This document shows positions 24,880-62,473 of a stretch of 64,000 bases of DNA, piece by piece. Below the pieces are notes generated by a model. It made no database searches. It had not been told where the DNA came from and was given only the letters and a program-made list of their open reading frames with translations. The first letter of the stretch is position 1. Each line of letters starts with the position of its first letter. Origin of the DNA: Acutalibacteraceae bacterium (GTDB lineage Bacteria > Bacillota > Clostridia > Oscillospirales > Acutalibacteraceae); the NCBI GenBank assembly GCA_045544155.1, contig JAZPYN010000009.1, positions 5,940 through 69,939 of the forward strand, read 5' to 3'. A program made the translations under genes and the position numbers.

Positions 24880-24880
24880 A

Positions 24881-26943: not shown

Positions 26944-27084
26944 ATTATAATACATCCTTTCGACATAATATAATAATTATATTGTATTTTTTATACGTTT
27001 TCAAGCATTAAAAATTTTAAAAGCAACTTTTCATACCCCTAAAATCGCTTTCTGTACCTTTTGACGGTTTTTGTCATTTTTTTG

Positions 27085-38600: not shown

Positions 38601-38627
38601 TCAGTATTATAATACGTAAAAAATCAT

Positions 38628-38666
38628 CAGCAACCCTTTCTTTTTTGGAAAAGGTTGCTGTTTTTT
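38628..38666 (+). terminator. Intrinsic terminator
   Basis: CAGCAACCCTTTC (38628-38640) pairs with GAAAAGGTTGCTG (38648-38660), followed by a T6 run. Confidence 0.8.
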
Positions 38667-38800
38667 GTGGTTTTTTCTGCGAATATCAAAAAAATTGAAT
38701 ATTAATACTCAGTTTGCAATCTGTCAACAGAATTTACATTAATTTTACGGTTGTATTTTTTTTAATTGTGTGATAGTATTAATACTGTATAAGTAAAAAT

Positions 38801-40165: not shown

Positions 40166-40182
40166 CTTTGGAGGCGAGCTCC

Positions 40183-40905
40183 GTGCTTGATATTCATTGC
40201 CATATTTTGCCCGGCGTTGATGACGGCTCGGGTGCTCTCAGCGATTCTCTTGAAATGGCACGCATTGCAGCGGCTTCGGGAATAAGCAGTATTGTTGCAA
40301 CACCTCACTGCAATATACCGGGTCTTTGTAAAAACTACCGCAGTGAAAAATTAATATCAAAGTTCAATGAGCTGCATGATGCACTGGAACGTAATTTGAT
40401 TCCTGTTGATTTGTATTACGGTCAGGAAGTTTTCTTTACGGATGACTTTGAAAAACATTTTGAGCACGGAGATTTTTTAACGCTCAACGGCTCGAAATAT
40501 ATGCTGGTAGAGCTTGATTTTGAGATAAGTGAAGAAGAGGCGATAAAAAGCATAAAGCGCGTTGCTTCAACAGGTGTCGTGCCTGTTGCGGCACACCCTG
40601 AACGGTACGGCTTTATTGTTGAGCAGCCCGACCGTGCAGTGCAGCTCTGCCGCGCAGGTGCCTTGCTCCAGCTCAACCGAAGCAGTATAGTAGGTGAGTT
40701 CGGTCAACGCATATATTCAGCGGCAAAATACATATTGGATAACGGGCTTGCTGATGCGGTTGCAAGCGATGCACACAGCCAATACAGCAGAATACCTGAT
40801 TTTTCCGATGTGCACGAGGCGATATGCGAGAATTGGTCTTATGATTACGCAGATATTCTTCTAAAAATAAATCCGACAAAAATAATTAAAAATGAAACGG
40901 TCTGA
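40183..40905 (+). CDS. CpsB/YwqE-type (PHP family) protein-tyrosine phosphatase
   Basis: I prefer the GTG at 40183, 8 nt after GGAGG; the track opens at a TTG at 40168. The N-terminus is VLDIHCHILPGVDDGS. Confidence 0.85.
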   Translation: MLDIHCHILPGVDDGSGALSDSLEMARIAAASGISSIVATPHCNIPGLCKNYRSEKLISKFNELHDALERNLIPVDLYYGQEVFFTDDFEKHFEHGDFLTLNGSKYMLVELDFEISEEEAIKSIKRVASTGVVPVAAHPERYGFIVEQPDRAVQLCRAGALLQLNRSSIVGEFGQRIYSAAKYILDNGLADAVASDAHSQYSRIPDFSDVHEAICENWSYDYADILLKINPTKIIKNETV

Positions 40906-40937
40906 AGACTGTTGCTTCAAAGAAAGGCGAAAATCGT

Positions 40938-41756
40938 ATGATAAAATGGCTTCAAAAAATAACTCTGCTGCTGTTTTCCGTAACGCTTGTTGCGTTTGTT
41001 GCGTTTTCGGTTATAGACAGGATAAAAACCGATACTACCGTTCCGGTTATCACTGTTGAGTCTGATACGATCGAAATGAGTGTCAGAGACAGCAAGGAGA
41101 TGCTTCTCAGAGGCGTTACGGCGTTTGATGAGAAGGATGGAGATATTACGGATAAGGTGCTTGTAGAGTCGGTATCAAAGTTTATAACTCCCGGTGAATG
41201 TACGGTAACCTATGCTGTTTCTGATTCTGACCGTCACGTTTCCAAGGTCACGCGTACGCTTCGCTATACCGATTACACAACACCGGAATTTTATATGAAG
41301 CGTGCTTTGGTCTACTCGGTGGATGAGGATGTTGATATACGCTCGGCCATCGGTGCGAGAGACTGTATTGACGGTGATATCAGCGACAAGGTCACCATAA
41401 CCGCGACTGATTTTGTTGAGAATACGGCAGGAGTTTTCACTGTGTCCGTATCGGCGGCAAACAGTATGGGCGATATGATATATCTTGATGTTACCGTGCA
41501 CGTTGAAGGTAATGAGACGATGGCACCTCAGATTCAGCTTGAAAAGAGCCTTATATATGTTAAGAAGGGCGAAACACCTATATTTGAAGACTATATAAAA
41601 GAGGTCACGGTCAACGGTGTGCTTATGAAAAATTACAATCTTCTTGTTTCAACTAACTATGACTGTGACAAGGAAGGTACATATAACGTACATTTCTATA
41701 TTTCCACCAATGAGGGTTACGAGGGCCACTCTATACTTACGGTTGTTGTTGAATAA
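40938..41756 (+). CDS. Membrane-anchored protein with Ig-like (DUF5011-type) domains
   Basis: 272-aa ORF with an N-terminal TM segment and repeated D..DGDI[ST]DKV signatures (AFDEKDGDITDKV, ARDCIDGDISDKV). Confidence 0.55.
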   Translation: MIKWLQKITLLLFSVTLVAFVAFSVIDRIKTDTTVPVITVESDTIEMSVRDSKEMLLRGVTAFDEKDGDITDKVLVESVSKFITPGECTVTYAVSDSDRHVSKVTRTLRYTDYTTPEFYMKRALVYSVDEDVDIRSAIGARDCIDGDISDKVTITATDFVENTAGVFTVSVSAANSMGDMIYLDVTVHVEGNETMAPQIQLEKSLIYVKKGETPIFEDYIKEVTVNGVLMKNYNLLVSTNYDCDKEGTYNVHFYISTNEGYEGHSILTVVVE

Positions 41757-41799
41757 TAATGATTATTTTGTTTCGCCTTAGTGCGAGAGGTGATGAGAT

Positions 41800-43308
41800 T
41801 TGAAGAGTAACAGATCGTGGTTTACGATAACTTTTGAATTGAACAGCCTGATAAGAGACCTGGTAAGAAATATATGGGCGATTCTGCTTGCAGGTCTGAT
41901 TGCGGCTATGGGAGTAAGCATTTTTGAAAAAAGTATATATACACCCAGCTATACAAGCAGCGCGGTGCTTGTAGTACGCTCTAAGGTGAGCAGCAGCGGT
42001 GCTTACAGTAACCTGTCGGCCTCGAGTGAAATGGCTACGATATTTACGAAGGTTTTTGATCAGGTATCGATGAAGAATCTTGCGGCTGAGAATCTTGGGC
42101 TTGATTCGTTTGACGGCGATATTACCGCAGAGGTAAACGGTTCGACAAACCTGCTGAATATATCCGTCAAGTCGGATGAGCCGGAGCTTGCATTTAAGCT
42201 GCTGACATCTGTGCTGGAGGTTTACCCGGAAATATCAGATGCGGTATTTACCAATGCGGTAATTGACGTTATTTCTTCACCTAAAATGCCGACTGCTCCG
42301 TCAAATTCCGTGCTTACGAGATACCGTAACCATATCGTATTGTTTGCAATGCTCTTTGAGGCTGGTCTCATAGTGCTGCTGTCGCTGCTTCGCGAAACGG
42401 TCAAGGAGGAAAAGGGATTTTCGGAAAAGATAGATTCGCACATTATTTCGACGATCTCGCACGAGCGTCCGCATCTCTCTCTTAAGGAGAGACTTCACCG
42501 AAAGAAAAGGTCACTGCTTATAAATGATGCATATTCAAGTCTGAGATTTACCGAGGATTACCAGAAGCTTGCAACCAAGCTTGAATATATGCATAAAAAT
42601 AAGGGACATAAGGTGTTTGTTGTTACAAGCGTTGCTGAGAATGAAGGTAAGTCTACGGTAGCCGCCAATACGTCATTGGCACTTGCCGGCAGAGGATACC
42701 GCGTTGCGCTTATAGACCTTGATGTCCATAAACCGTCAATGTATAAAATATTTGACTACGGTAAGGAAATGAAAAATGAGTTTTCGGACGTGCTTACAAA
42801 CCGTGTCACGCTTGACGATTTCAGCTTTGTACGTTACAGAAAGACTGATCTTATAATTGCTTTTAACAAAAAATCTCATACAAATAAAAACAGTGAATAT
42901 GACGCCACTGCACTGAAAAACTGCATTACCGCGCTTCGCGAAAAGGTTGACTTTGTAATTATAGATACTCCTCCGTCATCTGTTTCGGCAGACAGTGTTA
43001 TGGCATCGGCTTTTGTTGACAGAACGCTGCTTGTTGTAAGGACGGATTGCGTTGCGGTACGTGATATTAACGATGCGATACTCGCTGTATCCGACGCGGG
43101 CGGTAAGCTTGCAGGCTGTGTGCTCAACGATGTTTATAAGCCGTTTACACTTTTCGGACAGATAGGAATTGACGAAACCGGTTATCACGGCTACGCGGCA
43201 TATTACCGCGGTTACTCTAAATACGGCAGAGGCAATTTTGCCGTAGGAGATGCAGATGTGTTTACGGAAGAATCACTCGAAGATAAAACAGATAAAAAAC
43301 AGGGATAA
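41800..43308 (+). CDS. Fused Wzz-like chain-length domain and BY-kinase (protein-tyrosine kinase), paralogue 1
   Basis: TTG start behind GAGAGGTGA. Two TM segments bracket an extracytoplasmic domain. Walker A SVAENEGKST, Walker A' ALIDLDVHKP, Walker B VIIDTPP. C-terminal Tyr cluster GYHGYAAYYRGYSKYG. Confidence 0.8.
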   Translation: MKSNRSWFTITFELNSLIRDLVRNIWAILLAGLIAAMGVSIFEKSIYTPSYTSSAVLVVRSKVSSSGAYSNLSASSEMATIFTKVFDQVSMKNLAAENLGLDSFDGDITAEVNGSTNLLNISVKSDEPELAFKLLTSVLEVYPEISDAVFTNAVIDVISSPKMPTAPSNSVLTRYRNHIVLFAMLFEAGLIVLLSLLRETVKEEKGFSEKIDSHIISTISHERPHLSLKERLHRKKRSLLINDAYSSLRFTEDYQKLATKLEYMHKNKGHKVFVVTSVAENEGKSTVAANTSLALAGRGYRVALIDLDVHKPSMYKIFDYGKEMKNEFSDVLTNRVTLDDFSFVRYRKTDLIIAFNKKSHTNKNSEYDATALKNCITALREKVDFVIIDTPPSSVSADSVMASAFVDRTLLVVRTDCVAVRDINDAILAVSDAGGKLAGCVLNDVYKPFTLFGQIGIDETGYHGYAAYYRGYSKYGRGNFAVGDADVFTEESLEDKTDKKQG

Positions 43309-43317
43309 GGATACCGT

Positions 43318-44799
43318 ATGAAAAACAACAAAAACAACGATGTGAATAGCTCTAATTCACCCGTGGAAATAAGGGTGCTTATCAGTGATATTTGGCGCGG
43401 AGTAATCAAGTTCGGCTGGATTGCTCTGGCTCTTGCCGTGCTTTTCGGAGGTATACAGTTTTACAGGAGCTATGTGCGGTATAAACCTGAATACACCGTT
43501 TCAGCAACGTTTACGGTGCATACGGAAAACGCTGTGCTTTCGGGTGACAACGGCGTTTCTGCATATTCGTTCTACTATAATAAAAATACCGCTGACCAGC
43601 TTGCAAATGTTTTTCCGCACGTTGTCAATAACTCGTTGCTGAAAAATCAGGTGTGCAATGAGCTTGGTGTTAAGTCGATGCCTGCTGCGGTTACGGCAAA
43701 ATGTATTGCAGATACGAATATGGTAACTCTCACAGCCAAGGGTTCAGATCCCCAAATGACCTATGATGTTCTTATGAGTGTTATCAATAACTACTCTTCC
43801 GTTGCCGATTATATTATCGGCCGTACCAAGCTTGTTATGATAAATGAACCTGATATGCCTGACGGGCCTTCCAATACACTGGCGTGGCGTTCTGCTGTGC
43901 TAAGGGCAGCGTTGATAGGTCTCGTAATTGGTGTTGCATGGATAATGGTTTATGCAATACTTCGCAAGACGATACGTACTAAGGAAGATATACACACGAT
44001 ACTGAATCAGCACTGTGTAGGCATACTGCCGCAGGTCATTTTCAAAAAGTACCGTCGCCAGATTAACTCTGACATAATACTTACAAATCCCCTTATCGGA
44101 AACCATTTTCTTGAAGCCTTAAGACTTCTCAGAGGCTCTGTACAGCAGTGCCTTGATGAAAAGGACAGGGTTGTAATGATAACAAGTACTGCTCCGGGTG
44201 AGGGCAAGTCTGTTGTAACGTTTAATATTGCGGCATCTTTTGCTAAAAGCGGCAGCAAAGTGCTTGTGGTTGACTGTGACCTGCGCGACTCCGGAATCGA
44301 TACAATACTTTCCGGAGATGATTACGGAGTGAAGGTAACAGATGAAAAGAAAACATATACAGTAAGCAGTATTGAAGCGTTGGGCTTCGATATACTCAGT
44401 TTTAAAAACGGTGAGGATAATTTGCAGGAGATCATACGTACCTCACAGCTCAAGAATCTTTTTGAACAGATGAAGCAGGAATATGACCTTGTATTTGTTG
44501 ACACTCCGCCTTGCGGAATTATTTCGGATGCAACAATAATTGCCGGTGCTGCGGACACGCTGCTCTATGTTATAAGACAGGATGCTGTTTTGCAGACCAG
44601 CATCAGGGCAGGTATAAATTCCATGCTCGAAACAGAGATAAAATTTGCCGGCTGTGTTCTTAACGGTGCAACAGGTGGCTTTGGCGGCTACGGCAGCTAT
44701 AACGGGTATTCAGGCTATAACAAGTATTATCGCAGCAGTTATTCACGCAGATACGGTTACGGATACAGTAAAACCCAAAAAACAAAAGCAAACAAATAA
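43318..44799 (+). CDS. Fused Wzz-like chain-length domain and BY-kinase, paralogue 2
   Basis: 493-aa ORF with two TM segments. Walker A STAPGEGKS, Walker A' VLVVDCDLRDS, Walker B VFVDTPP. C-terminal Tyr cluster GGYGSYNGYSGYNKYYRSSYSRRYGYGYS. Confidence 0.8.
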   Translation: MKNNKNNDVNSSNSPVEIRVLISDIWRGVIKFGWIALALAVLFGGIQFYRSYVRYKPEYTVSATFTVHTENAVLSGDNGVSAYSFYYNKNTADQLANVFPHVVNNSLLKNQVCNELGVKSMPAAVTAKCIADTNMVTLTAKGSDPQMTYDVLMSVINNYSSVADYIIGRTKLVMINEPDMPDGPSNTLAWRSAVLRAALIGLVIGVAWIMVYAILRKTIRTKEDIHTILNQHCVGILPQVIFKKYRRQINSDIILTNPLIGNHFLEALRLLRGSVQQCLDEKDRVVMITSTAPGEGKSVVTFNIAASFAKSGSKVLVVDCDLRDSGIDTILSGDDYGVKVTDEKKTYTVSSIEALGFDILSFKNGEDNLQEIIRTSQLKNLFEQMKQEYDLVFVDTPPCGIISDATIIAGAADTLLYVIRQDAVLQTSIRAGINSMLETEIKFAGCVLNGATGGFGGYGSYNGYSGYNKYYRSSYSRRYGYGYSKTQKTKANK

Positions 44800-44834
44800 G
44801 CGGCTGTAATTCTTTTCGGGAGGTGAGTGAGCGA

Positions 44835-46571
44835 ATGAAAAAGCCCGGCGAGTATAATGAGCTGTTTCGCTCTCTCGGCTCTGAGTGGAAATGGCTTCTC
44901 GGATATATCTCACGTTATAAGCTTCATATTGCGGTTTATGTGATAATGGGCATTGTTGCTGCAGCGATGGGGCTGGGCGTGAGCGTTTCGTCAAAATATC
45001 TTATAGATGCGGTTCTTGACAAAAATGTACATACCATTGTGACCAGTGCGGCTGCTGCAGTTTTTCTGGGGCTGGCACAGATAGTCATAAACGCCGTAAT
45101 ATCAAGGGTTGCTGCAATGGCTGGCACCAAGATAAGCAGTGAAATACGTGAGAATATATACGAGCATATTGTGTTTTCGAAATGGGAGTCTGTAAGACGT
45201 TACCATTCGGGTGATCTGCTTAACAGAATTGAAGGCGATGCCGGTGCTGTGGCAAGCAGCATAGTTACTTTTATACCGGGTGTTTTTACCAAGCTTACTC
45301 AGTTTGTCGGCTGTCTTGCGCTTGTGCTTTATTATGATCCGACAATGGCGATCTTTGCGTTTTTGAGCACTCCTTTTCTTGCCCTTTCTTCACGTATTAC
45401 TGCCAAAATGACACGTAAATACAACAAAGAGAGTCGTGAAATGAACGGTAAGCTGATAAGCTTTTATTCTGAGTCTATACAAAACTTGCAGATGATAAAG
45501 GCTTTTGATATTACCTCACGATATGTAGAGCAGATACGCCGAAATCTTGCACTTTACAGAAAAATAAGGCTCGATCACGACAAATTCGCTACAATAATGA
45601 CGGCTTGTATGGCTGTAATAGGTCTTATAGTCTCGTATGCTTGCTACGGATGGGGTGTATGGAGGCTTTGGAACGGCATAATAAGCTTTGGTACGATGAC
45701 ACTGTTTTTGCAGATATCCGGCAAGCTGACAGCCTCATTTTCTTCGCTCGTTTCACTTGCACCGAGTGCAATCTCAATAGCCACTGCTGCCGGCAGAATT
45801 ATGGAGATCACACAGATGCCTCTTGAAAACGGCGGCGATGCGGATAAGGCGGCTCAAATGAGCGATTCCGTAAGAAAAAACGGGATTACAATAGAATGCG
45901 AAAATCTGACATATACTTATGATGACGGCACGGAACCCGTTGTGAAAGATGTTTCATTTATTGCCCGTGCAGGAGAAACAATAGCCTTCGTAGGTCCTTC
46001 GGGAGAAGGCAAAACGACGGTTCTACGGCTTGTTTTAGGCTTGCTTGAGCCGGATTCAGGCTCGATTATAATGCGTACGGATGACGGTGAGGCTATCAAG
46101 GCTTCAGAGAGCACGAGGCGGTTTTGTTCCTATGTACCGCAGGAGAATGCGGTGTTTTCGGGCTGTATTGCGGATAATCTGCGCATCGTCTGCCCTGAGG
46201 CAAGTGATGATGATTTGAAATGCGTTCTTGAAGCGGCAGATGCGTGGAGTTTTATTGAGAGACTGCCGCTCGGCATTTACACATCTGTTGATGAAAAAGG
46301 TGTTAATTTTTCAGAGGGACAGATTCAGCGTATATCAATTGCACGTGCTCTTTTGCGTGATGCAGCTGTTATTGTTATGGATGAGGCTACAAGTGCACTT
46401 GATGCCGCTACGGAGGAGAGGGTGCTTGCAAATATGATGAAGGCATATCCTAACCGCACACGAATTATAACAACGCACAGACCCAGTATGCTCAGGTATT
46501 GTACGCGTATTTACCGAATAAGCACAGACGGCACGCTGACTCAGGTGAGTGCTGAGGAAGCTGCAGGATAA
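44835..46571 (+). CDS. ABC exporter, fused permease/ATP-binding protein
   Basis: I prefer the ATG at 44835, 12 nt after GGGAGG; the track opens at a GTG at 44823. Six-TM N-terminal half. Walker A GPSGEGKTT, signature FSEGQIQR, Walker B VIVMDEATS. No C39 peptidase domain. Confidence 0.85.
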   Translation: MKKPGEYNELFRSLGSEWKWLLGYISRYKLHIAVYVIMGIVAAAMGLGVSVSSKYLIDAVLDKNVHTIVTSAAAAVFLGLAQIVINAVISRVAAMAGTKISSEIRENIYEHIVFSKWESVRRYHSGDLLNRIEGDAGAVASSIVTFIPGVFTKLTQFVGCLALVLYYDPTMAIFAFLSTPFLALSSRITAKMTRKYNKESREMNGKLISFYSESIQNLQMIKAFDITSRYVEQIRRNLALYRKIRLDHDKFATIMTACMAVIGLIVSYACYGWGVWRLWNGIISFGTMTLFLQISGKLTASFSSLVSLAPSAISIATAAGRIMEITQMPLENGGDADKAAQMSDSVRKNGITIECENLTYTYDDGTEPVVKDVSFIARAGETIAFVGPSGEGKTTVLRLVLGLLEPDSGSIIMRTDDGEAIKASESTRRFCSYVPQENAVFSGCIADNLRIVCPEASDDDLKCVLEAADAWSFIERLPLGIYTSVDEKGVNFSEGQIQRISIARALLRDAAVIVMDEATSALDAATEERVLANMMKAYPNRTRIITTHRPSMLRYCTRIYRISTDGTLTQVSAEEAAG

Positions 46572-46581
46572 TAGTTGTTTT

Positions 46582-46620
46582 AAGCAGGAGGTGTATATGG
46601 CCTTCTGCTTATTTTTTTTA
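46582..46620 (+). terminator. Strong intrinsic terminator after the ABC exporter
   Basis: AAGCAGGAGG (46582-46591) pairs with CCTTCTGCTT (46601-46610): 10 bp including one G-U pair. It is followed by ATTTTTTTT. Confidence 0.8.
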
Positions 46621-46651
46621 AAGTGAATTACTGTATATTTATATATATATA

Positions 46652-46680
46652 TTGCTTTATTTTTCTTGACGTGATATAAT
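46652..46680 (+). promoter_or_regulatory. Sigma-A-type promoter of the RiPP-like cassette
   Basis: TTGCTT (46652-46657), a 17-nt spacer ending in TG-A, then TATAAT (46675-46680). Confidence 0.6.
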
Positions 46681-46725
46681 CAATTTGGTTTATTATGATT
46701 TATGATAAAATGTGGTGTTGCAGTT

Positions 46726-46992
46726 ATGTTTAAGATCAAGGATGGCTTTATTGTACGGCGTATAGGTCCGCAGACGATGGCTGTACCTACGGGTAAAATG
46801 ACATCGGAGATACACGGTATGATAGCACTCAGCGAGAGTGCAGTCTGCTTGTGGTCGGCACTTGAAAAGGGCGCGGAAGCACATGAGCTTGCGAAATTGC
46901 TGACAGATCAATATGAAACGGATTACGACACTGCGCTTGCTGATGTCGAAAAATTTATTGAAGGCTTGCGTGAGCAGGGGGCTCTTGAATAA
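46726..46992 (+). CDS. PqqD-family protein (RiPP recognition element / peptide chaperone)
   Basis: 88-aa product from the ATG at 46726; the track opens at 46702. MFKIKDGFIVRRIG...ALSESAVCLWSAL...ELAKLL...YETDYDTALADVEKFIEGLREQGAL fits the PqqD family pattern by eye. Confidence 0.7.
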   Translation: MFKIKDGFIVRRIGPQTMAVPTGKMTSEIHGMIALSESAVCLWSALEKGAEAHELAKLLTDQYETDYDTALADVEKFIEGLREQGALE

Positions 46993-48044
46993 TGGAATGC
47001 GACAGCTTTAATTCAAAATATACGGATTTGCTGGGGAGCTGGGCTAAGGAAAACCGTGTGCCGCTTACAGTAAATTTTGAGCTGACTCCGTTTTGTAACT
47101 TCAGCTGTGTAATGTGCTATGTTCGGCTCGATAAAAAGTCGGCAGAAGTTCAGGGCAGAATGCTGACAGCCGATGAATGGCTCGATATTGCTGCACAGGC
47201 TAAGGCTATGGGCACACTCAACCTTGCACTTACGGGCGGTGAGCCGCTTACTCATCCCGATTTCTGGTATATATACAGCAGGCTCAACAAAATGGGCTTT
47301 CTTCTTTCAATACTGACAAACGGTTCACTTATAGATGAAGCTGTTATAGAAAAGTTTCGTATGTACGGTATGCCGTACAGGGTGAAAATTACTCTTTACG
47401 GTGCGAGCGACGAAACATATCTGCGCACCTGCGGCTCACACGACGGCTTTACAAGGATTTCAAAAGCGATAGATCTTCTCAAAGCAGAGGGTGTGCCGCT
47501 TACGCTTACCTCTACTGTTGTACACGAAAACGCAGATGACCTGCAGGCGATGTACAGATTTGCGGCAGGAAAGGGTCTCAGACTTCAGCATACGGTCAGT
47601 GTGCTTAAATCCTCGCGCGGCTCTGTTAACTCGGTTGCGTCTTCTCGTTTTGCTTTGAGCGATTTCCCCGATGAGCTTTCACTCGAGCAGCTTGAGCGCA
47701 GTAAATTTCCTCCGCTTGCCTCTCCGTTTGCCTGGTGTGCGAGTAAGGATGTGTCATTCTGGATGACTTGGCACGGCCATATGCAGCTTTGTGCCTTTAT
47801 GTGTAAGCCGTATATCAAATATTCGGGCGACATTTCGCATGATTATGAACGTATGCTGTCCTTGCTCGACGACATAAAAAGTCCGTTGGAATGCAGCAAC
47901 TGCGAATGGGCGGATTTTTGTCAGCGGTGTCCGGGTATTCTCTGTGCAGAGAGCTCGGATCCGGAGAAAACAGAAAAAGGTCTTTGTGATATGGCAAAAA
48001 GGCTTTATGAAATATATTTAACTAAAAAAGGAGAAAAGGTATGA
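46992..48044 (+). CDS. Radical SAM / SPASM-domain peptide-modifying enzyme
   Basis: 350-aa ORF with CNFSCVMC (CX3CX2C), LTGGEPL, and a C-terminal Cys cluster (CAFMC...CSNCEWADFCQRCPGILC). The start overlaps the PqqD stop (TAATG). Confidence 0.8.
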   Translation: MECDSFNSKYTDLLGSWAKENRVPLTVNFELTPFCNFSCVMCYVRLDKKSAEVQGRMLTADEWLDIAAQAKAMGTLNLALTGGEPLTHPDFWYIYSRLNKMGFLLSILTNGSLIDEAVIEKFRMYGMPYRVKITLYGASDETYLRTCGSHDGFTRISKAIDLLKAEGVPLTLTSTVVHENADDLQAMYRFAAGKGLRLQHTVSVLKSSRGSVNSVASSRFALSDFPDELSLEQLERSKFPPLASPFAWCASKDVSFWMTWHGHMQLCAFMCKPYIKYSGDISHDYERMLSLLDDIKSPLECSNCEWADFCQRCPGILCAESSDPEKTEKGLCDMAKRLYEIYLTKKGEKV

Positions 48045-48307
48045 AGAAAAAGTATATTGCTCCCGAAAGCAGACTTTTTGCGATCAACCTGAGTGAAAGT
48101 ATTGCGGTTTCCGGCGGTACATCTGAAATTTCAGGCTCGGCCGTTATCCAGTTTACCGATGCTATGGACGGCTGCAGAACTTACTATTCCGGTATTCAGT
48201 CCGCTAAAGTTGAAACTACAGGTACCGGCTTTATTGATTATTATAACGAGCTTATGGGCTACGGCGCAGAGGCGTATTTTAACTGCTTCCGCTATAAGTT
48301 CGGATGA
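48041..48307 (+). CDS. 88-aa hypothetical peptide; candidate RiPP precursor/scaffold
   Basis: AAGGAG (48028-48033) lies 7 nt before the ATG, and ATGA overlaps occur at both ends. No TM segment or signal peptide. The sequence starts MKKKYIAPESRLFAINLSESIAVSGG, followed by a Gly/Tyr/Ser/Thr-rich region with 2 Cys. Confidence 0.6.
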   Translation: MKKKYIAPESRLFAINLSESIAVSGGTSEISGSAVIQFTDAMDGCRTYYSGIQSAKVETTGTGFIDYYNELMGYGAEAYFNCFRYKFG

Positions 48308-49074
48308 GGATCGGGCTGTGCGGTCTGCCGTTTGAGTGGCAGGCGGATAATACGGATTTTGTAAAAGATTTTGCCTCGGAAGATGAAGCAAGTCCGGTTA
48401 TGAAGCTAAGCTTTGCTGATGCTATGCCCGAGGGATACGGTATACAGTATGCCGATACGCCGACTTCACATCTTCTCAGACTGTCCGGCGGTGAGCTGCT
48501 GTGCGCCGCAGATGATTGGAGCGAGGCCACTGTTTATTTCGACAATGACAACAGTGAGTATGCCTTGCCGCTTGCAGCTGTGTGCTCAAGGCTTGCTTAT
48601 TTCGGCGGACTTCTTTTTCACGCTTCGTGTGTTGAGCTCGACGGTGAGGGTGTTGTGTTTGCAGGATTTTCGGGAGCAGGCAAAACAACTCAGGCAAGGC
48701 TGTGGAAAGAGTATCTCGGCGCAGAGATTATAAACGGAGACAAGGTGCTTGTGCGCTTGGCAGAAGGTGAAGTTTTGGCATACGGTCTTCCGTGGAAGGG
48801 CTCGTCTGAATACTGCCTGAACCGCAGGACAAGGTTAAAGGCGATAGTAATACCGATGCACTCTTCAGTAAATAAGATAACAAGGCTTGATACGCTCGGT
48901 ATAGTTGAGAAGCTTATGCCGCACGTTTTTCTCCCGCATTGGGACAAGCGTTGCCTTGAGCTTGCACTTTCTGCTTTTGACACACTGCAGACTGAGATAT
49001 CGGTATGGCTTCTTGAGTGCAGGCCCGATAAAGAGGCTGTGAAATTGACTTACGGTACGGTTTTTGACAAGTGA
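48304..49074 (+). CDS. HprK C-terminal-domain-like P-loop kinase
   Basis: 256-aa ORF. LFHASCVELDGEGVVFAGFSGAGKTT matches the HPr-kinase-like catalytic core pattern (HA..V...G.GVL..G.SG.GKS/T). Confidence 0.65.
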   Translation: MRIGLCGLPFEWQADNTDFVKDFASEDEASPVMKLSFADAMPEGYGIQYADTPTSHLLRLSGGELLCAADDWSEATVYFDNDNSEYALPLAAVCSRLAYFGGLLFHASCVELDGEGVVFAGFSGAGKTTQARLWKEYLGAEIINGDKVLVRLAEGEVLAYGLPWKGSSEYCLNRRTRLKAIVIPMHSSVNKITRLDTLGIVEKLMPHVFLPHWDKRCLELALSAFDTLQTEISVWLLECRPDKEAVKLTYGTVFDK

Positions 49075-49523
49075 TGGAAAAATTAGTTTGTTCTGCATCT
49101 GACTTTACGCAGATGCTTGAGGATACCTTAAACGACGGTGCTGTTGTACCGCTTTGTGTTACCGGTACAAGTATGCGTCCGTTTCTGCTTGAGGGCAGGG
49201 ATACAGTGTGGCTGAGCCGCTGCTGCAGCGAAGATATAAAGCGTGGCAGTATAGTGCTTTTCAGACGCAGTGACGGAACGCTCGTGCTTCACAGGATACG
49301 CCGTGTAAAGTCTGACGGTGAACTGACAGTTAACGGTGATGCTCAGAGATGGTGCGAAGCTGTTGAGGCATCAAGGGTTATTGCTGTTGTGCGTTATATT
49401 GAGCGTAACGGCAGCAAAATAAACTGTTCAGGCGGCGGCTTCAGATTTCGCAGTGAAATATGGCAGATTTCCAAGCCCTGCAGACCCTTTTTGCTCAAGG
49501 TTTGGAGAAAGCTGACAAAATGA
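49074..49523 (+). CDS. S24/S26-family (signal-peptidase-like) serine peptidase with no TM segment
   Basis: 149-aa product from the ATG at 49074 (a GTG lies at 49071). Motifs GTSMRP (Ser box), RGSIVLF, VLHRIRRV (His in the position of ER/archaeal/SipW-type enzymes) and NGD. No hydrophobic run of 18 aa or more. Confidence 0.6.
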   Translation: MEKLVCSASDFTQMLEDTLNDGAVVPLCVTGTSMRPFLLEGRDTVWLSRCCSEDIKRGSIVLFRRSDGTLVLHRIRRVKSDGELTVNGDAQRWCEAVEASRVIAVVRYIERNGSKINCSGGGFRFRSEIWQISKPCRPFLLKVWRKLTK

Positions 49524-50686
49524 ATTGGAGTAACGGTATGGATGCTCTGAAAACCGAGGTGCTGATATCCTTAATATCGGGCGCGGTGCACGGCTGTGAG
49601 CCTGTATTGCCTGACGGATGTGAGTTGAGTGAAGATTTACTTCTTGAGCTGTACAATGTTTCAAGAAACCATGATGCAGCTCATCTTGTCGGTGCGGCGC
49701 TTGGCTATGTTGATTGCGTAACTGTACCGAGCATTTACGGAGACAGTACTTTTTTTGCGATATACCGATATGAAAATATGAGCTTTACGCTAAAGAATGT
49801 TTCAGCTGCTCTTGAATCGGCAGGTATACCGTTTATACCTCTTAAGGGTGCTGTTATTTCAGAGCTCTATCCCGAGCCGTGGATGAGGACGAGCTGTGAT
49901 ATCGATATCCTTGTGCACGAACAGGATACGGAACGCGCAGTTGATGAACTGACAGAGAAGCTCGGATTCAGTTTAGGTAAAAAGGGAAGACACGATGTGG
50001 TGCTTACATCAGCAGAAGGAATTTCGCTTGAGCTTCACTTTACCTTGCTTGAGGATGATGATTTCCGCGATGCATCGCAGGTGCTGTCCGAAGTATGGAG
50101 CTACGCTTTGCCCGTTAAAGAAGGCAGTTCTGAGCACAGGCTCAGCAGTGAGATGCTTTGCTTTTACCATATCGTGCATATGGCACGGCATTTTATTTGC
50201 GGCGGCTGCGGTATACGTCCGTTTCTTGATTTGTATTTGATAACTGATAAAAATACCGAAAGGTTGCCCTACGGTCTGCTGAAAAGGGCAGGTCTTGTTA
50301 AATTCGGTGAGAGCGTGACGAAACTCAGTAATGTGTGGTTCGGGAACGGCGAGCACGATGAGGTAACGCTTGAAATGCAGGAATTTATCATTGACGGCGG
50401 TAAATTCGGCTCGGGTGAAAGTCGCCTTGCCGCATGGGAAAGCGTTGCGGGCGGCAAGAAAAAATATGTTGCTTCACGTATATTTCTTCCGTACGACAAG
50501 CTCAAATATCAGTATCCCGTATTGGAAAAACACCGTTTTTTGACCCCTGCCTGCGAAATTTGTCGTTTGTTTTCACTTGTGGCAGGAAAAAAGAAAAAAG
50601 TGAGAAAAAAGCAATTTGACAGAATAAATAAGCTGTCTGAAGGCTATGCCGAAAAAACAGCGGCATTGTTTGAAAAAATATTTTGA
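49520..50686 (+). CDS. PF14907-like (NTP_transf_5) nucleotidyltransferase-fold protein
   Basis: I prefer the ATG at 49520, which overlaps the peptidase stop (ATGA); the track opens at 49460. PLKGAVISELYPEPWMRTSCDIDILV fits the family motif by eye. Confidence 0.6.
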   Translation: MNWSNGMDALKTEVLISLISGAVHGCEPVLPDGCELSEDLLLELYNVSRNHDAAHLVGAALGYVDCVTVPSIYGDSTFFAIYRYENMSFTLKNVSAALESAGIPFIPLKGAVISELYPEPWMRTSCDIDILVHEQDTERAVDELTEKLGFSLGKKGRHDVVLTSAEGISLELHFTLLEDDDFRDASQVLSEVWSYALPVKEGSSEHRLSSEMLCFYHIVHMARHFICGGCGIRPFLDLYLITDKNTERLPYGLLKRAGLVKFGESVTKLSNVWFGNGEHDEVTLEMQEFIIDGGKFGSGESRLAAWESVAGGKKKYVASRIFLPYDKLKYQYPVLEKHRFLTPACEICRLFSLVAGKKKKVRKKQFDRINKLSEGYAEKTAALFEKIF

Positions 50687-50723
50687 TAAAATCAAACTGT
50701 TGTGTAGAAAGAGCGATAGATAT

Positions 50724-51377
50724 ATGGATAAAAAGGTTCAGACCGGTAATCAAAGCGGATATCGTGTCATCAAAAGATTTTTTGATATAGTGCTGTCGTT
50801 TATCGGCATAGTTATACTGCTTGTGCCTATGTTGTTAATTATGCTGATAGTAGTTATTGATGATCCGGGCAGCCCAATATTTTCGCAGAAGCGTGTAGGC
50901 AGAAACGGTGAGCTGTTTAATGTTTACAAGCTGAGAACCATGAAAAAGCACACGCCGAAATACCTTGCGACCAAGGATGTGGATGACCCGGATAAGTATA
51001 TCACAAGAACTGGCAGGCTTCTGCGTAAGCTTTCGATAGACGAGCTGCCTCAGCTTTTCAATATACTCAAGGGTGATATGAGTATTGTGGGCCCGAGACC
51101 GCTCATCCCCGATGAAAAAGAGATACATATTCTTCGTGAGCAATGCGGTGTATACAGCCTACGCCCCGGTCTGACGGGTCTTGCACAAATAAACGGCAGA
51201 GATCTGGTGTCTGCGCAGAAAAAAGTGGCTTGGGATGAAAAGTATCTGAATAATATCAGCTTTAAAACAGATATAAAGATTCTTTTGGCAACGATTCCAA
51301 AGGCTCTTGGCGGTAAGGATGTTTCAGAAGCCTTTGACAGCACCGAAAAAGATGGAGCAACGGAAGGGAATAACTAA
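50724..51377 (+). CDS. Small (PglC/WcaJ C-domain-like) polyprenyl-phosphate phosphoglycosyltransferase
   Basis: 217-aa product from the ATG at 50724; the track opens inside the previous gene. One N-terminal hydrophobic helix, PIFSQKRVG, and DELPQLFNILKGDMSIVGPRP. Confidence 0.85.
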   Translation: MDKKVQTGNQSGYRVIKRFFDIVLSFIGIVILLVPMLLIMLIVVIDDPGSPIFSQKRVGRNGELFNVYKLRTMKKHTPKYLATKDVDDPDKYITRTGRLLRKLSIDELPQLFNILKGDMSIVGPRPLIPDEKEIHILREQCGVYSLRPGLTGLAQINGRDLVSAQKKVAWDEKYLNNISFKTDIKILLATIPKALGGKDVSEAFDSTEKDGATEGNN

Positions 51378-51402
51378 TAAAAAAAGAAAGAGCGGTGTTA
51401 CT

Positions 51403-52800
51403 GTGAGCAAGAAAAAGAATAGCCTCAAGGACAAAAATTTTGCTTGCATTACTATTATTAGATTTTGCAAATTAATTCACATACTTCTTAATATCGGAAT
51501 ATTTGCTGTTTGTCTTGACTTTTACAATTCAAGGTATAACGATTATGGCGTAGGCGATATTAGGTTTATGATATTTGTAGGTTTGTATACGTTAGTACTC
51601 TTGTTTTCTTTGAGAACATATAAAGCATATGATTTCGGTATGACAGATAACGGTATATTGATTTATTCGCAGGCACTTGCAGGATTAGTAACAAACATTG
51701 CATTTTATGTGGTGTTTGTTGTTGCAAACTCAAAAGTATTTAATCCTTTGCCGTTAGCAGGATTTTTCTTGATTCAGATTATTGCTGATTGTATTTGGAC
51801 CTGCATAGTAAACCAAATTTATTTCCGGCTTAATGCACCTAAAAAGTCAGTTGTTTTCTATCGTGCACAAGAGAATGTCAGCCATCTTGAAGAAGTTTAC
51901 AAGCGTGAGAAAAATTTTGAAATTACCGAAGTTGTAGAATGCACGGCGGATTGGGTTGAGCATATAAAAAACTGTGAGGTTGTTTTCTTGGTTGATCTGT
52001 CCAAAAGAGACCGCAATCAGATTTTTGAATATTGCATTAAAAATAACATTCAGTGCTATGCATCACCGCATATAGGTGACATTATTATGATGGGTGCAAC
52101 ACATCTTGATATGTTTAGTGTGCCTGTTTTTGAAATCTCAAGAGTAACATTAAATATTGAGTACCTGATTATCAAACGCATAGTAGATATTGTATTTTCT
52201 CTGTTTGGAATTGTTGTTCTCAGTCCTGTTATGGTTGTGACTGCGATTGCGATACGTATGTATGATAAGGGTCCGGCATTATATAAGCAGGTAAGACTTA
52301 CAAAAGATGGTAAGGAATTTAAAATACTTAAATTCCGAAGTATGCGTGTGAACGCGGAGAGTGACGGTGTTGCAAGACTTGCAACAAGCCACGATGATCG
52401 CATAACACCTATAGGTAAAATCATCCGTGCTTGTAGAATTGATGAGCTTCCTCAGCTTTTCAATATACTGAAAGGTGATATGTCGATTGTCGGTCCGCGT
52501 CCAGAGAGGCCTGAGATTGCAAAGCAATATCTTGAGGAACTTCCTGCATTTGATCTTCGTTTGCAGGTACAGGCAGGTCTTACGGGACTTGCACAGGTTT
52601 ACGGAAAATACAATACCGAACCGCTGGACAAGCTTCAAATGGACTTGATGTATATAAATAATATGTCAATACTCCAGGATTTTAAGCTTATAATGGCTAC
52701 TATAAAGGTTCTCTTTATGAAGGAAAGCACCCACGGAACCGCCGAAGGTCAGACTACGGCACTCGTAAAAAAAAATGAGAAGGATTTTGAAAACAAATGA
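51403..52800 (+). CDS. Large (WbaP/EpsB-like) polyprenyl glycosylphosphotransferase
   Basis: Multi-TM N-terminus, central nucleotide-binding-like domain and C-terminal DELPQLFNILKGDMSIVGPRPERP. The start is uncertain: GTG at 51403 is chosen, with an alternative ATG at 51352. Confidence 0.8.
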   Translation: MSKKKNSLKDKNFACITIIRFCKLIHILLNIGIFAVCLDFYNSRYNDYGVGDIRFMIFVGLYTLVLLFSLRTYKAYDFGMTDNGILIYSQALAGLVTNIAFYVVFVVANSKVFNPLPLAGFFLIQIIADCIWTCIVNQIYFRLNAPKKSVVFYRAQENVSHLEEVYKREKNFEITEVVECTADWVEHIKNCEVVFLVDLSKRDRNQIFEYCIKNNIQCYASPHIGDIIMMGATHLDMFSVPVFEISRVTLNIEYLIIKRIVDIVFSLFGIVVLSPVMVVTAIAIRMYDKGPALYKQVRLTKDGKEFKILKFRSMRVNAESDGVARLATSHDDRITPIGKIIRACRIDELPQLFNILKGDMSIVGPRPERPEIAKQYLEELPAFDLRLQVQAGLTGLAQVYGKYNTEPLDKLQMDLMYINNMSILQDFKLIMATIKVLFMKESTHGTAEGQTTALVKKNEKDFENK

Positions 52801-53990
52801 AAATTCTTATCCACACAGATGAATATTATCCTACTTGTGCAGCATGTGCATACAGGATTAAGTCTTTTGCAGATACTTTTACAGATAACGGTAATGAGGT
52901 TACCGTTATTACAAGCTCTGCAAATAAGCACAACGGTAAACTCGAAGCTCATAGTGAAAGAATACTTTTTTCTCCTACTGTAAGGATGAAAAAGAAAACC
53001 ACATTAATGAGATTGCTCAATAATCTTAGTTTTGCGTTTACATCGGTGTTAACAGCATTCAGAGCGGGAAAAGCTGATGTCGTTATAACAACATCACCGC
53101 CTCCGCTTGTAAGCATATCCGGATGGTTGATTTCTAAAATCAAGCGTGCAAAACTGGTATATGATGTCCGCGATATCTGGCCTGATGTTGCTATTGAAAT
53201 GAATAGCTTCGGAGAAAATAGTTTCTACTGCAAACTGTTTACAGCAATAACATCTTTTATGTATAAGCATGCCGATATGGTAACCACAGTTTCTCCCGGC
53301 AAAGTTGAAAAAATCAAAGGTAAACTGCCGGCAGACGATGCGAATAAAACCATATTAGTGGGAAACGGTTTTGACGAGAATATTCTGAACAGCAAAACCG
53401 ATGAAGATATTATAAACAAATACGATCTTGACAGCGGCTTTACATGTGTTTATATCGGCAATATAGGTCTCGCACAGGGTCTTGATTCCATTCTTGAAAT
53501 TGCGGCTGAGACAAGGCATAAAGATGTCAGATTCCTTTTGTTTGGTACAGGTGCAGAAAAAGATTCACTTGAACAAGCGGCTAAGGAAGCAGGGCTTGAT
53601 AACGTGTCTTTCTGTGGAGTCATTCCTCATGACAAGGTGTACACGATACTTATCGGGGCTAAACTTAGTTTTATTCCACTCAAAAGCGCAAAGATGAAGG
53701 ACAGTATACCCACAAAAATATATGAAGCACTCGGTGTAGGCTGCCCTGTGTTCCTTGTAGCCGAAGGTGATGCATGCGATATTGTTAATGAAAGCTGTAT
53801 GGGATACTGTGTTTCGCCTGAACAAAACAGCAAGTTAATTGAAACATTTGACAGAATGGTTGATTTTTATGATGAAATATGCGTTAATCGTTTATTTGCT
53901 CAAAATTTGATAAAGAATAAGTATTCGCGTCGCTCTATTGCTGATGAGTTTGAAATGCAGTTAAAAAAATTGGTGAATGAAAAAGGGTGA
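52797..53990 (+). CDS. GT4-family (WbuB-like) glycosyltransferase
   Basis: 397-aa ORF with ATGA overlap to the previous gene. GT-B fold features include the E-x7-E region (PTKIYEALGVGCPV). Confidence 0.75.
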   Translation: MKILIHTDEYYPTCAACAYRIKSFADTFTDNGNEVTVITSSANKHNGKLEAHSERILFSPTVRMKKKTTLMRLLNNLSFAFTSVLTAFRAGKADVVITTSPPPLVSISGWLISKIKRAKLVYDVRDIWPDVAIEMNSFGENSFYCKLFTAITSFMYKHADMVTTVSPGKVEKIKGKLPADDANKTILVGNGFDENILNSKTDEDIINKYDLDSGFTCVYIGNIGLAQGLDSILEIAAETRHKDVRFLLFGTGAEKDSLEQAAKEAGLDNVSFCGVIPHDKVYTILIGAKLSFIPLKSAKMKDSIPTKIYEALGVGCPVFLVAEGDACDIVNESCMGYCVSPEQNSKLIETFDRMVDFYDEICVNRLFAQNLIKNKYSRRSIADEFEMQLKKLVNEKG

Positions 53991-62454: not shown

Positions 62455-62473
62455 CAATTTTATGAGGTTGAGT

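Follow-up and report, generated by a model that had tools for sequence, protein, structure and literature searches.

What is a cassette of peptide-modification genes doing inside a polysaccharide locus? The question is raised by a 64,000-nucleotide stretch of an Acutalibacteraceae genome (GenBank assembly GCA_045544155.1, contig JAZPYN010000009.1, positions 5,940 to 69,939), which we call the window and whose own numbering is used for all positions. In the ORF list and the raw sequence, six tightly packed open reading frames (ORFs), all on the + strand, occupy 46726-50686. Judged from its gene content, the surrounding region is a Gram-positive, Wzy-type capsule or exopolysaccharide (EPS) locus, referred to here as cps. 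An earlier analysis from the letters alone, hereafter the sequence-only reading, had likened the cassette to those for peptides of ribosomal origin that are modified after translation (RiPPs) and could not match it to a characterised system. We find that there is such a system: five of the six genes, together with the ATP-binding cassette (ABC) gene upstream, map one-to-one onto the biosynthetic set of the linear polyphosphorylated peptides (LPP) (PMC13381572). We propose, with a probability of roughly 0.72, that this is an LPP-type RiPP biosynthetic gene cluster from a clostridial sister lineage that carries a radical S-adenosylmethionine (SAM)/SPASM maturase, and that it is built into the cps locus and co-expressed with it.

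The LPP family was defined by Popov et al. (Nat Commun 2026) with the lppA-K-B-S-D-N genes of Paenibacillus alginolyticus (PMC13381572). Its core genes encode LppS, a SipW-type protein like signal peptidase I (SpI), the discrete RiPP recognition element (RRE) LppB, the HprK-like LppK, the NTP_transf_5 protein LppN and the MsbA-like LppD (PMC13381572). Both systems have a discrete PqqD-type RRE, an HprK-like kinase, a soluble SipW-type Ser/His/Asp peptidase, an NTP_transf_5 protein and an MsbA-like exporter. Both precursor leaders read MKK-x-Y-x-x-P with a Glu at Y+14 and a Ser a few residues on, both systems lack a macrolactam synthetase, and both are embedded in capsule/EPS loci; LPP clusters are reported to "often co-localise" with capsular polysaccharide loci (PMC13381572). 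The window cluster differs in having a radical SAM/SPASM maturase gene between those of the RRE and the precursor, a core of 66-68 aa with a near-invariant C-terminal Cys, a host among the Clostridia (Acutalibacteraceae) where that of LPP belongs to the Bacilli, and an exporter gene that lies upstream and is set apart by a terminator. Based on protein similarity, we assign the cassette to a sister lineage of LPP with a radical SAM/SPASM maturase, cluster 4 of the published sequence similarity network (SSN), and not to LPP proper. Only SSN cluster 1 was analysed in the LPP paper, and the words "radical" and "SAM" are absent from its text and from the accessible part of its domain co-occurrence table (PMC13381572). 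A search of the literature on the radical SAM, kinase and SpI architecture, on ScmC and on SynChlorMet, with thin coverage of subscription journals, found nothing beyond that paper.

The precursor of such a pathway should be recognizable by its conservation. The third ORF (48041-48307, 88 aa) matches no Pfam or NCBIfam family, and its profile gave chance matches only against the PDB. Its homologues form 58 close clusters and yielded 51 representatives among 1.84 billion proteins. Across 49 precursor sequences, the mean frequency of the most common residue is 0.75 over the first 24 residues and 0.33 over the remaining 64. M1, Y5, P8 and E19 are conserved in 100% of these sequences and K2, K3, S10, L12 and I21 in at least 95%. 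Cys82 is present in 97% of precursors, and in every case except one its distance from the C-terminus is 1-9 residues. The leader comprises approximately residues 1-20/22, MKKKYIAPESRLFAINLSESIA, and is followed by a core of about 66-68 aa that holds Cys45 and Cys82. Its register is that of LppA, with a Y, a P at Y+3 and an E at Y+14. Relative to the LPP leader motif, YxxPxVLxHQxIxFET/xxS (PMC13381572), Y5, P8 and E19 are kept, and a Ser stands at Y+19; this residue, Ser24 in the sequence VSGG, is found in every member of the close family. An AlphaFold2 (AF2) prediction had a mean pLDDT of 43.7 and gave no usable model, which we read as a protein that probably has no stable autonomous fold. No other ORF with a conserved leader and a variable core was found in the window. 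We identify the 88-aa ORF as the RiPP precursor because of its conserved leader, hypervariable core, fixed Cys82, lack of a confident fold and LppA register, and because it is the sole such ORF. A 2912-aa Ser/Thr-rich repeat protein (P0319) that gave 21 matches to the core profile was dismissed as a compositional or repeat artefact.

An 88-aa product is long for a RiPP precursor, and within the close family its whole length is 46-99% conserved. One could therefore suppose that the ORF encodes an accessory protein and that the true substrate of the enzymes is something else, for instance the glycan or one of the cps proteins. We give this idea very little credence: the leader shares its register with the proven LppA, the core is hypervariable at family scale, no fold is predicted, equivalent small ORFs sit at the same position in every distant cluster, and LPP precursors themselves span 35-200 aa (PMC13381572).

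The first gene of the cassette (46726-46992) encodes the 88-aa RRE, a match to Pfam PqqD (PF05402, 1.4e-12); its start at 46726 (MFKIKDGF) agrees with the MKIKEGF starts of homologous RREs. It also matches lasso B1 proteins weakly (lasso_PqqD at 5.6e-6 and TbiB1), and a sequence search of the PDB gave weak lasso B1 matches alone. We compared the RRE and the peptidase with the sequences in Supplementary Data 1 of PMC13381572. Among these, the "other" RREs of SSN clusters 4 and 9 share 34-40% identity (1e-19 to 1e-21) with that of the window. Identity to the LPP RREs is 24-30% for three of four and about 20% for the fourth (E 0.045), with E-values ranging from 1e-6 to 0.05. D73 aligns with D70 of LppB, and S36 stands in place of its N33. 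By analogy with LppB, we propose that the discrete RRE would bind the YxxP leader and hand the precursor to the modifying enzymes.

The second gene (46992-48044) encodes a 350-aa radical SAM protein (Pfam Radical_SAM PF04055, 2.3e-27) that has no RRE domain of its own. In a search of the PDB its best sequence matches were SkfB (2e-10) and PqqE (7e-9), and an AF2 model (pLDDT 78) had MoaA, SuiB, SkfB, anSME, PqqE and CteB as Foldseek neighbours. Residue conservation was assessed across 39-43 orthologues of each cassette protein, and the motifs picked out by the sequence-only reading were located and conserved in this comparison. In the 43 radical SAM orthologues these are CNFSCVMC (C35/C39/C42) and GGEPL (82-86), together with eight C-terminal Cys in the pattern C249-x12-G262-x4-C267 ... 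C301-x2-C304-x5-C310-x2-C313-x4-C318 ... C332. The earlier assignment to the radical SAM/SPASM type is thus borne out by the Cys pattern and by fold matches to SuiB, SkfB, anSME, PqqE and CteB, which are our grounds for it, but not by the Pfam SPASM model. An exact database look-up of the protein returned no identical record. PADLOC matched it to prokaryotic viperin (pVip), a defence protein; these matches are confined to the radical SAM core (residues 24-195), so they reflect generic radical SAM similarity, and we reject the viperin call. The other cassette proteins had no PADLOC match.

The nearest NCBIfam models of the radical SAM enzyme are PqqE (3e-21), StsB, ScmE and the mycofactocin maturase. 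This resemblance, with a discrete RRE and one conserved residue near the peptide C-terminus, is what would be expected if the cassette made a peptide-derived cofactor, in the manner of PQQ or mycofactocin, for an enzyme of polysaccharide synthesis. However, all of these models score far below their cutoffs (75.7 bits against 381 for PqqE and 65.2 against 265 for the mycofactocin maturase), and neither PqqB/C, nor MftD/E/F, nor a partner dehydrogenase accompanies the cassette. Cofactor precursors have no hypervariable 60-aa cores, and the exporter, kinase, SpI-like peptidase and NTP_transf_5 protein fit a system for an exported peptide. We reject the assignment to the PQQ and mycofactocin pathways themselves, and a cofactor role of this type is highly improbable.

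The remaining three genes encode a kinase, a peptidase and a nucleotidyltransferase-fold enzyme. In profile searches the family calls made earlier for PqqD, Radical_SAM and NTP_transf_5 were matched outright, and those for the kinase and the peptidase were matched below cutoff. The kinase (48304-49074, 256 aa) is an HprK-related P-loop protein of the ScmC family. In a public metagenome-assembled genome (MAG) with a 99%-identical cassette, the kinase is annotated as Pfam PF27840 ScmC. A profile built from 29 kinase homologues has HPr kinase/phosphorylase structures as its top matches in the PDB (1ko7, 5e-4). The motif HASCV...GFSGAGKTT corresponds to H106...G121-T129, and both H106 and the P-loop G121xSGxGKTT129 are conserved. 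By analogy, the kinase is the predicted counterpart of LppK, and would phosphorylate or polyphosphorylate a Ser early in the core; LppK adds up to four phosphates to Ser3 of its core (PMC13381572). On the association of HprK-related kinase and PqqD pairs with PEP-CTERM loci that the sequence-only reading brought up, the NCBIfam search offered the model names HprK_rel_A and HprK_rel_B alone.

The peptidase (49071-49523, 150 aa) is a homologue of SipW/archaeal-type signal peptidase I. Its motifs GTSMRP, HRIRR and NGD contain S34, H74 and D90, which are at least 95% conserved and align with the catalytic S29/H68/D93 of LppS (PMC13381572). It is 32-38% identical (1e-21 to 1e-30) to SpIs of SSN cluster 4 from Dehalobacter and Anaerocolumna, and 21-36% identical (1e-12 to 1e-6) to those of LPP cluster 1. 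No hydrophobic or transmembrane segment was found in it, which points to a cytoplasmic enzyme and not a secretory signal peptidase. We therefore predict, from the likeness to LppS, that it acts as an RRE-dependent leader peptidase; leader cleavage by LppS requires LppB (PMC13381572).

The last gene of the cassette (49520-50686) encodes a 388-aa NTP_transf_5 protein (Pfam PF14907, 1.5e-36). The motif KG...SCDIDILV holds G110, D127 and D129, and G110 and D127xD129 are conserved. In the lasso peptide pseudomycoidin, the NTP_transf_5 protein PsmN is needed for the addition of one or two hexoses to phospho-Ser, and the D134A/D136A substitution in its DxD motif abolishes this addition (PMC6993621). 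As the predicted counterpart of LppN and PsmN, the window enzyme would decorate the phospho-Ser. Immediately upstream of the cassette, the ABC gene (44823-46571, +) encodes a 582-aa fused half-transporter of a transmembrane and a nucleotide-binding domain (ABC_membrane 6e-35, ABC_tran 1e-25) whose best NCBIfam matches are MsbA_rel (7e-78) and MsbA (2e-74). The gene belongs to the cassette system, and its product is predicted to be the LppD counterpart, a putative exporter of the mature peptide.

Taken together, these assignments suggest a pathway with a tentative order of steps. The precursor would bind the discrete RRE through its K-x-Y5-x-x-P8 leader, and the RRE would present it to the radical SAM/SPASM enzyme as PqqD does for PqqE. 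This enzyme would cross-link the core, most likely by a thioether from Cys82, and from Cys45 where that is present. The ScmC/HprK-like kinase would place one or several phosphates on a Ser in the Ser/Gly-rich segment that follows the leader, for which Ser24 is the candidate. The Ser34/His74/Asp90 peptidase would cut between E19 and S24, either after S20, as the LppA register would have it, or after A22, as the small-residue rule suggests. The NTP_transf_5 enzyme would decorate the phosphate, probably with a sugar, and the MsbA-like transporter would export the product. RRE binding and the kinase, peptidase, decoration and export steps are drawn from homology to LppA/B/K/S/N/D and PsmK/N; RRE presentation and the radical SAM step we infer. 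Among the homologues, RRE-leader binding through [Y/W]xxP has been shown, as have Ser poly-phosphorylation and RRE-dependent SpI-like cleavage (PMC13381572).

Does the radical SAM enzyme belong to this system, or is it peculiar to the window? We sampled the gene neighbourhoods of seven diverse cluster-4-type peptidases and found the array PqqD, radical SAM, small ORF(s), ScmC and SpI in six, namely in Dehalobacter sp. CF, Clostridium polyendosporum, a Syntrophomonadaceae MAG, a Clostridia MAG (in two copies) and two metagenome contigs. An ABC exporter accompanies all six arrays and an NTP_transf_5 gene five of them. The seventh, Desulfosporosinus meridiei, has the same set without the radical SAM gene, and a similar ABC gene is present in 7/7. 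The distant small ORFs share the leader MKxY[IV]KPxxxxxELRxEER[FL]AG[GS], again with Glu at Y+14, and each of the 11 that are linked to a radical SAM gene contains at least two Cys. On the evidence of these gene neighbourhoods, the radical SAM enzyme is a regular member of the clostridial lineage. Polysaccharide genes (Wzz/BY-kinase, Bac_transf, glycosyltransferases, LytR and Polysacc_synt_2) adjoin the cluster in six of the seven relatives. In Dehalobacter and Desulfosporosinus, a separate Wzz and BY-kinase pair adjoins the RiPP genes, with the NTP_transf_5 gene divergently placed.

Two of the seven distant clusters adjoin paeninodin-type lasso clusters. In C. polyendosporum (locus L048:10671-14683) and a metagenome contig (L052:12312-16373), the radical SAM cluster stands back-to-back with a complete cluster of this type (Asn_synthase, HprK kinase, PqqD, Transglut_core3 and a precursor with a W-x-x-P leader), mirroring the pairing of LPP and lasso clusters reported for Bacilli.

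Closer to the window, a genome scan with the precursor profile yielded 42 loci, all in MAGs of ruminant-gut Acutalibacteraceae or unclassified Clostridia; we regard a 43rd hit, in Bacteroidaceae and with 41% identity across 34 residues, as marginal. The best match, to the goat-caecum MAG RGIG1745, has a precursor 100% identical to that of the window. By tblastn synteny the order Ig-CpsCD-CpsCD-ABC-PqqD-rSAM-ORF3-kinase-SpI-NTP_transf_5, in which rSAM stands for the radical SAM gene and ORF3 for the precursor, is found in 39/42 loci; of the three exceptions, one is without the ABC gene, one is without upstream hits and one lies on a contig that is too short. In all 42 loci, as far as the contigs extend, the cassette stands between the CpsC/D-ABC genes and the sugar-transferase genes, and the genes that follow the priming transferase vary as serotype-variable regions do. 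Pairwise identities of the ABC and cassette genes are correlated (Spearman 0.5-0.8), in keeping with genes that are inherited together. The surmise in the sequence-only reading that the EPS link is not accidental thus gains support from both neighbourhood surveys.

The details of the gene junctions bear on co-expression. The coordinates given earlier for the six ORFs, their overlaps and the gap behind them were reproduced: TAATG at 46990-46994, ATGA at 48041-48044, 48304-48307 and 49520-49523, and GTGATG at 49071-49076, with best starts at 46726, 46992, 48041, 48304, 49071/49074 and 49520. Only 37 nt separate the stop of the NTP_transf_5 gene (50686) from the ATG (50724) of the first priming sugar transferase, Bac_transf (50724-51377, +; 5.7e-58), and the scan called no + strand terminator-like site in 50188-52063. 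In the related loci, five of six cassette junctions measure -4 to +4 nt in most cases, and the peptidase-NTP_transf_5 spacing reaches +54 nt. Among the 39 loci with an NTP_transf_5 gene, the Bac_transf start falls -4 to +2 nt from its stop in 17 and the gap is at most 42 nt in 24; in the others a DegT aminotransferase gene intervenes or the contig ends. This spacing, with Bac_transf overlapping or abutting NTP_transf_5 in most loci, backs the earlier suggestion of co-transcription with the glycan genes. The cassette and the priming phosphoglycosyl transferase gene would thus be transcribed together, with translational coupling between them in most relatives, so that the peptide would be made whenever the glycan is made.

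At the other end of the cassette, a terminator scan called an intrinsic terminator 3' of the ABC gene (46581-46620, +; 12-bp stem at 46581-46611 with a 7-nt loop, then T8), as had been proposed. The promoter-like site suggested there can also be read from the sequence, as TTGCTT (46652), 17 nt and TATAAT (46675-46680, + strand). The promoter scan did not list it and its -35 matches the consensus at 3/6 positions, but a TG at 46672-46673 makes an extended -10 (TGaTATAAT) that would compensate for the weak -35. An Rfam search over 38000-52000 (E<=1) found no match, so the ABC-PqqD spacer holds no known riboswitch or leader RNA. Is this boundary general? Among 39 loci with both genes, the ABC gene is directly 5' of PqqD in 31, and in eight a second cassette lies between them, in a spacer of 2.7-3.4 kb. 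The spacer is 3-36 nt without a terminator in 11 loci and 124-192 nt in about 22, with one at 599 nt; most of the former, and the 599-nt spacer, carry a hairpin and T-run in the corresponding position although the stems differ in sequence, and TTGA..-N17-TATAAT-like boxes were seen in the long spacers. Judged from these spacers, the terminator/promoter boundary is recurrent among relatives and not universal. The earlier view that the cassette heads its operon therefore holds for the long-spacer lineages but not for the 11 relatives in which the ABC gene runs almost directly into PqqD.

The second cassette of those eight relatives (L005, L009 (5388-8513), L012, L015, L017, L020, L022 and L040) is paralogous to the first at about 30% identity. 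It encodes an SpI (seen in L009, L015 and L020), a radical SAM protein of 387-406 aa, a two-Cys precursor of 54-63 aa (MKKxYxTPVAEKIEFRY...SC...C..VPDSG[FY]) and an HprK::PqqD fusion of 378 aa. It is absent from the window.

Several other known systems resemble the cassette in part. The lasso peptide clusters of paeninodin and pseudomycoidin share the HprK-like Ser kinase, the NTP_transf_5 protein, a discrete B1-type RRE, the [Y/W]xxP leader and an ABC exporter. They differ in having an Asn-synthase-like C cyclase and a B2 cysteine protease; the window cassette has a radical SAM enzyme in addition, and its leader peptidase is predicted to be of the serine type. The earlier statement that neither a lasso cyclase nor a B2 protease lies beside the cassette stands: neither the cassette nor its flanks yielded a gene for an Asn-synthase-like synthetase or a transglutaminase-like B2 protease, and we reject a lasso peptide assignment. 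At the end of the cps locus, 12 kb away, a 493-aa ORF (62462-63943, +) weakly matches Asn_synthase (Pfam 1e-3), TIGR01536 (5e-6) and the XrtA/PEP-CTERM amidotransferase (4.5e-4). Its product may be an amidotransferase acting on sugars; kinship with lasso cyclases is less likely. No homologue of it was found in the 42 related loci, nor a B2 protease gene anywhere in the window, whose end is 57 nt 3' of this ORF.

The sactipeptide and ranthipeptide systems (SkfB, AlbA, CteB, PapB) likewise combine a radical SAM/SPASM enzyme with a Cys-bearing leader precursor and an RRE, both the maturase and such a precursor are present in the cassette, and SkfB, CteB and SuiB are among the best sequence or fold neighbours of the window enzyme. 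In those systems, however, the RRE is an N-terminal domain of the radical SAM enzyme, whereas here it is a separate protein, and those classes do not feature the kinase, NTP_transf_5 or SpI-like peptidase. Most precursors of the window family have one or two Cys, and a thioether is putative here. A third comparison is with SynChlorMet (ScmC, ScmD, ScmE and ScmF), a system defined computationally in TIGRFAMs/NCBIfam, which shares an ScmC-family HprK-like protein, a PqqD-family protein and a PqqE-like radical SAM/SPASM enzyme. The window has one radical SAM enzyme in place of two, adds an identifiable precursor, an SpI-like peptidase, an NTP_transf_5 protein and an exporter, and differs in taxa and in its cps context. 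With one radical SAM gene, and with scores of 22.9 bits against 125 for ScmC and of 66.5 and 61.1 against 400 for ScmE and ScmF, we rejected the cassette proteins as SynChlorMet equivalogs.

If the cluster makes a modified peptide, what is the peptide for? Among characterised radical SAM RiPPs and lasso peptides the majority are antimicrobials, so the same product might be an independent factor in competition, with the cps locus as a co-regulated parking place and no tie to the polysaccharide. The core is hypervariable as in bacteriocins, and precursor similarity to that of the window does not follow the set of glycosyltransferases downstream. The patchy distribution of LPP and paeninodin clusters, suggestive of horizontal gene transfer (PMC13381572), is also typical of conflict systems. 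Against this, no immunity gene is evident, the cassette holds a stable position in 42 loci with translational coupling to the priming transferase, and Wzz/BY-kinase or glycosyltransferase genes are again found with such clusters in distant Clostridia and in Bacilli. On balance we find an independent antimicrobial role improbable, if still deserving of attention.

The opposite possibility is that the polysaccharide has a structural partner in the phospho-Ser peptide, an acceptor, primer, anchor or cap that would be loaded with sugar or with the entire repeat-unit polymer by the NTP_transf_5 enzyme, the glycosyltransferases or an enzyme of the LytR-CpsA-Psr (LCP) family. A Ser-O-(P)n-hexose is a known product type of the kinase and NTP_transf_5 pair, and LppN needed a partner from outside the core cluster. 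The cassette is coupled to Bac_transf and adjoins LytR-CpsA-Psr, Wzz and BY-kinase genes, and in Dehalobacter and Desulfosporosinus the NTP_transf_5 gene is beside the Wzz/BY-kinase pair. This idea is nonetheless purely inferential, the precursor does not co-vary with the glycan genes, and a hypervariable core is hard to square with a conserved structural role; we consider it quite unlikely. We know of no peptide-linked capsule of the phospho-Ser type. One specific version, which we rate just as doubtful, is that the Ser-(poly)phosphate of the cross-linked peptide mimics undecaprenyl-(pyro)phosphate and serves as acceptor, primer or terminal cap through the NTP_transf_5 enzyme, the glycosyltransferases or the LytR-CpsA-Psr ligase. 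If so, a ribosomal peptide would be a built-in part of capsule assembly in this group of gut Clostridia, and the end product a peptide-phospho-glycan conjugate in place of a free RiPP.

Our proposal of an LPP-type, radical SAM-bearing cluster that is co-expressed with the cps genes has to be weighed against several points. The window peptidase and RRE fall in the unanalysed SSN cluster 4 and the "other RRE" group, outside the LPP clade, and the VL, HQ and F-E-T parts of the LPP leader motif (VL..HQ..FET) are not kept in the window leader. The kinase matches to HprK_rel_B (3e-7) and ScmC (4.5e-5; 22.9 bits against a cutoff of 125) are both below cutoff, as are those of the peptidase to TIGR02228, the archaeal-type signal peptidase I model (3.8e-8), and Peptidase_S24 (2e-3); the radical SAM protein did not match Pfam SPASM. 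Every proposed modification is taken from homologues that are 21-40% identical, and in the sole LPP reconstitution LppN was inactive in the heterologous host (PMC13381572). A C-C cross-link or an epimerisation is equally allowed as radical SAM chemistry. Two Cys are common in LPP precursors without a radical SAM enzyme too, so Cys content is suggestive and no proof of a thioether, and we down-weighted it as a mark of radical SAM substrates. The synteny of the 42 loci was found through the precursor and spans a single bacterial family; vertical descent could account for much of it. Searching in the other direction, with the Ig-like protein of the cps locus against metagenome contigs, in order to count cps loci without the cassette, returned 2 distant loci only and was uninformative, so the selection bias remains. 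Finally, co-expression with the glycan genes is read from gene order.

The rest of the locus adds further observations. The conserved 5' block of the cps locus (38801-44799, +) encodes LytR-CpsA-Psr, a CpsB phosphatase, an Ig-like membrane protein and two Wzz::BY-kinase fusions. In most of the 42 loci, conservation is highest for the Ig-like protein (40938-41756, +; 272 aa, one N-terminal hydrophobic segment, Bact_surface_Ig-like domain), with an identity of 68-82% in most compared to 45-69% for the cassette enzymes. The tandem fusions of a Wzz-like chain-length domain with a BY-kinase-type P-loop ATPase (41800-43308 and 43318-44799, +) are kept as a pair in nearly all relatives. Downstream of the cassette are genes for two Bac_transf proteins, glycosyltransferases, a UDP-sugar dehydrogenase, a UDP-GlcNAc 2-epimerase and Wzy, followed by a TarF-like glycerophosphotransferase and a polytopic membrane protein. 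Through the cassette, the window shares 96-100% identity with RGIG1745 (L001). It then diverges over 50724-53990, compared with L001:12684-14500 and with L049: Bac_transf is 89% identical, an additional 497-aa Bac_transf is present in the window only and the next glycosyltransferase is 45% identical. From this alignment, the end of the cassette looks like a serotype-style switch point.

The TarF/TagF-like CDP-glycerol glycerophosphotransferase (59713-60936, +; Pfam 6e-43) within the cps locus suggests a glycerol-phosphate-containing polymer. The polytopic membrane protein (60955-62454, +; 499 aa, at least nine hydrophobic segments) matches no Pfam or NCBIfam family and is the only candidate for the Wzx flippase that had been assumed earlier, with the MsbA/PglK-like ABC protein at 44823 as an alternative. 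In a separate region on the - strand (21178-26955), an AgrC/LytS-type GHKL histidine kinase (24881-26167) and a 263-aa ORF adjoin a 1243-aa BspA-type leucine-rich-repeat surface protein, and a second leucine-rich-repeat protein lies at 34611-35840. The location of a peptide-sensing two-component system 20 kb from a peptide cluster may be coincidence.

The LPP family and its co-localisation with capsule loci were already published; new here are the clostridial branch with its radical SAM enzyme and the extent to which it is integrated into the cps operon. A branch that joins the LPP machinery to a radical SAM/SPASM enzyme is predicted to make a hybrid RiPP with both a cross-link and a phospho-(glyco)-Ser, a chemistry that we did not find described in the literature searched. 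The same architecture is present in the cultured organisms Dehalobacter sp. CF and Clostridium polyendosporum. In one gut family, the cluster appears from its gene order to be part of the conserved cps core and translationally coupled to the priming transferase, which is about the strongest evidence for a functional tie to the capsule that gene order can give.

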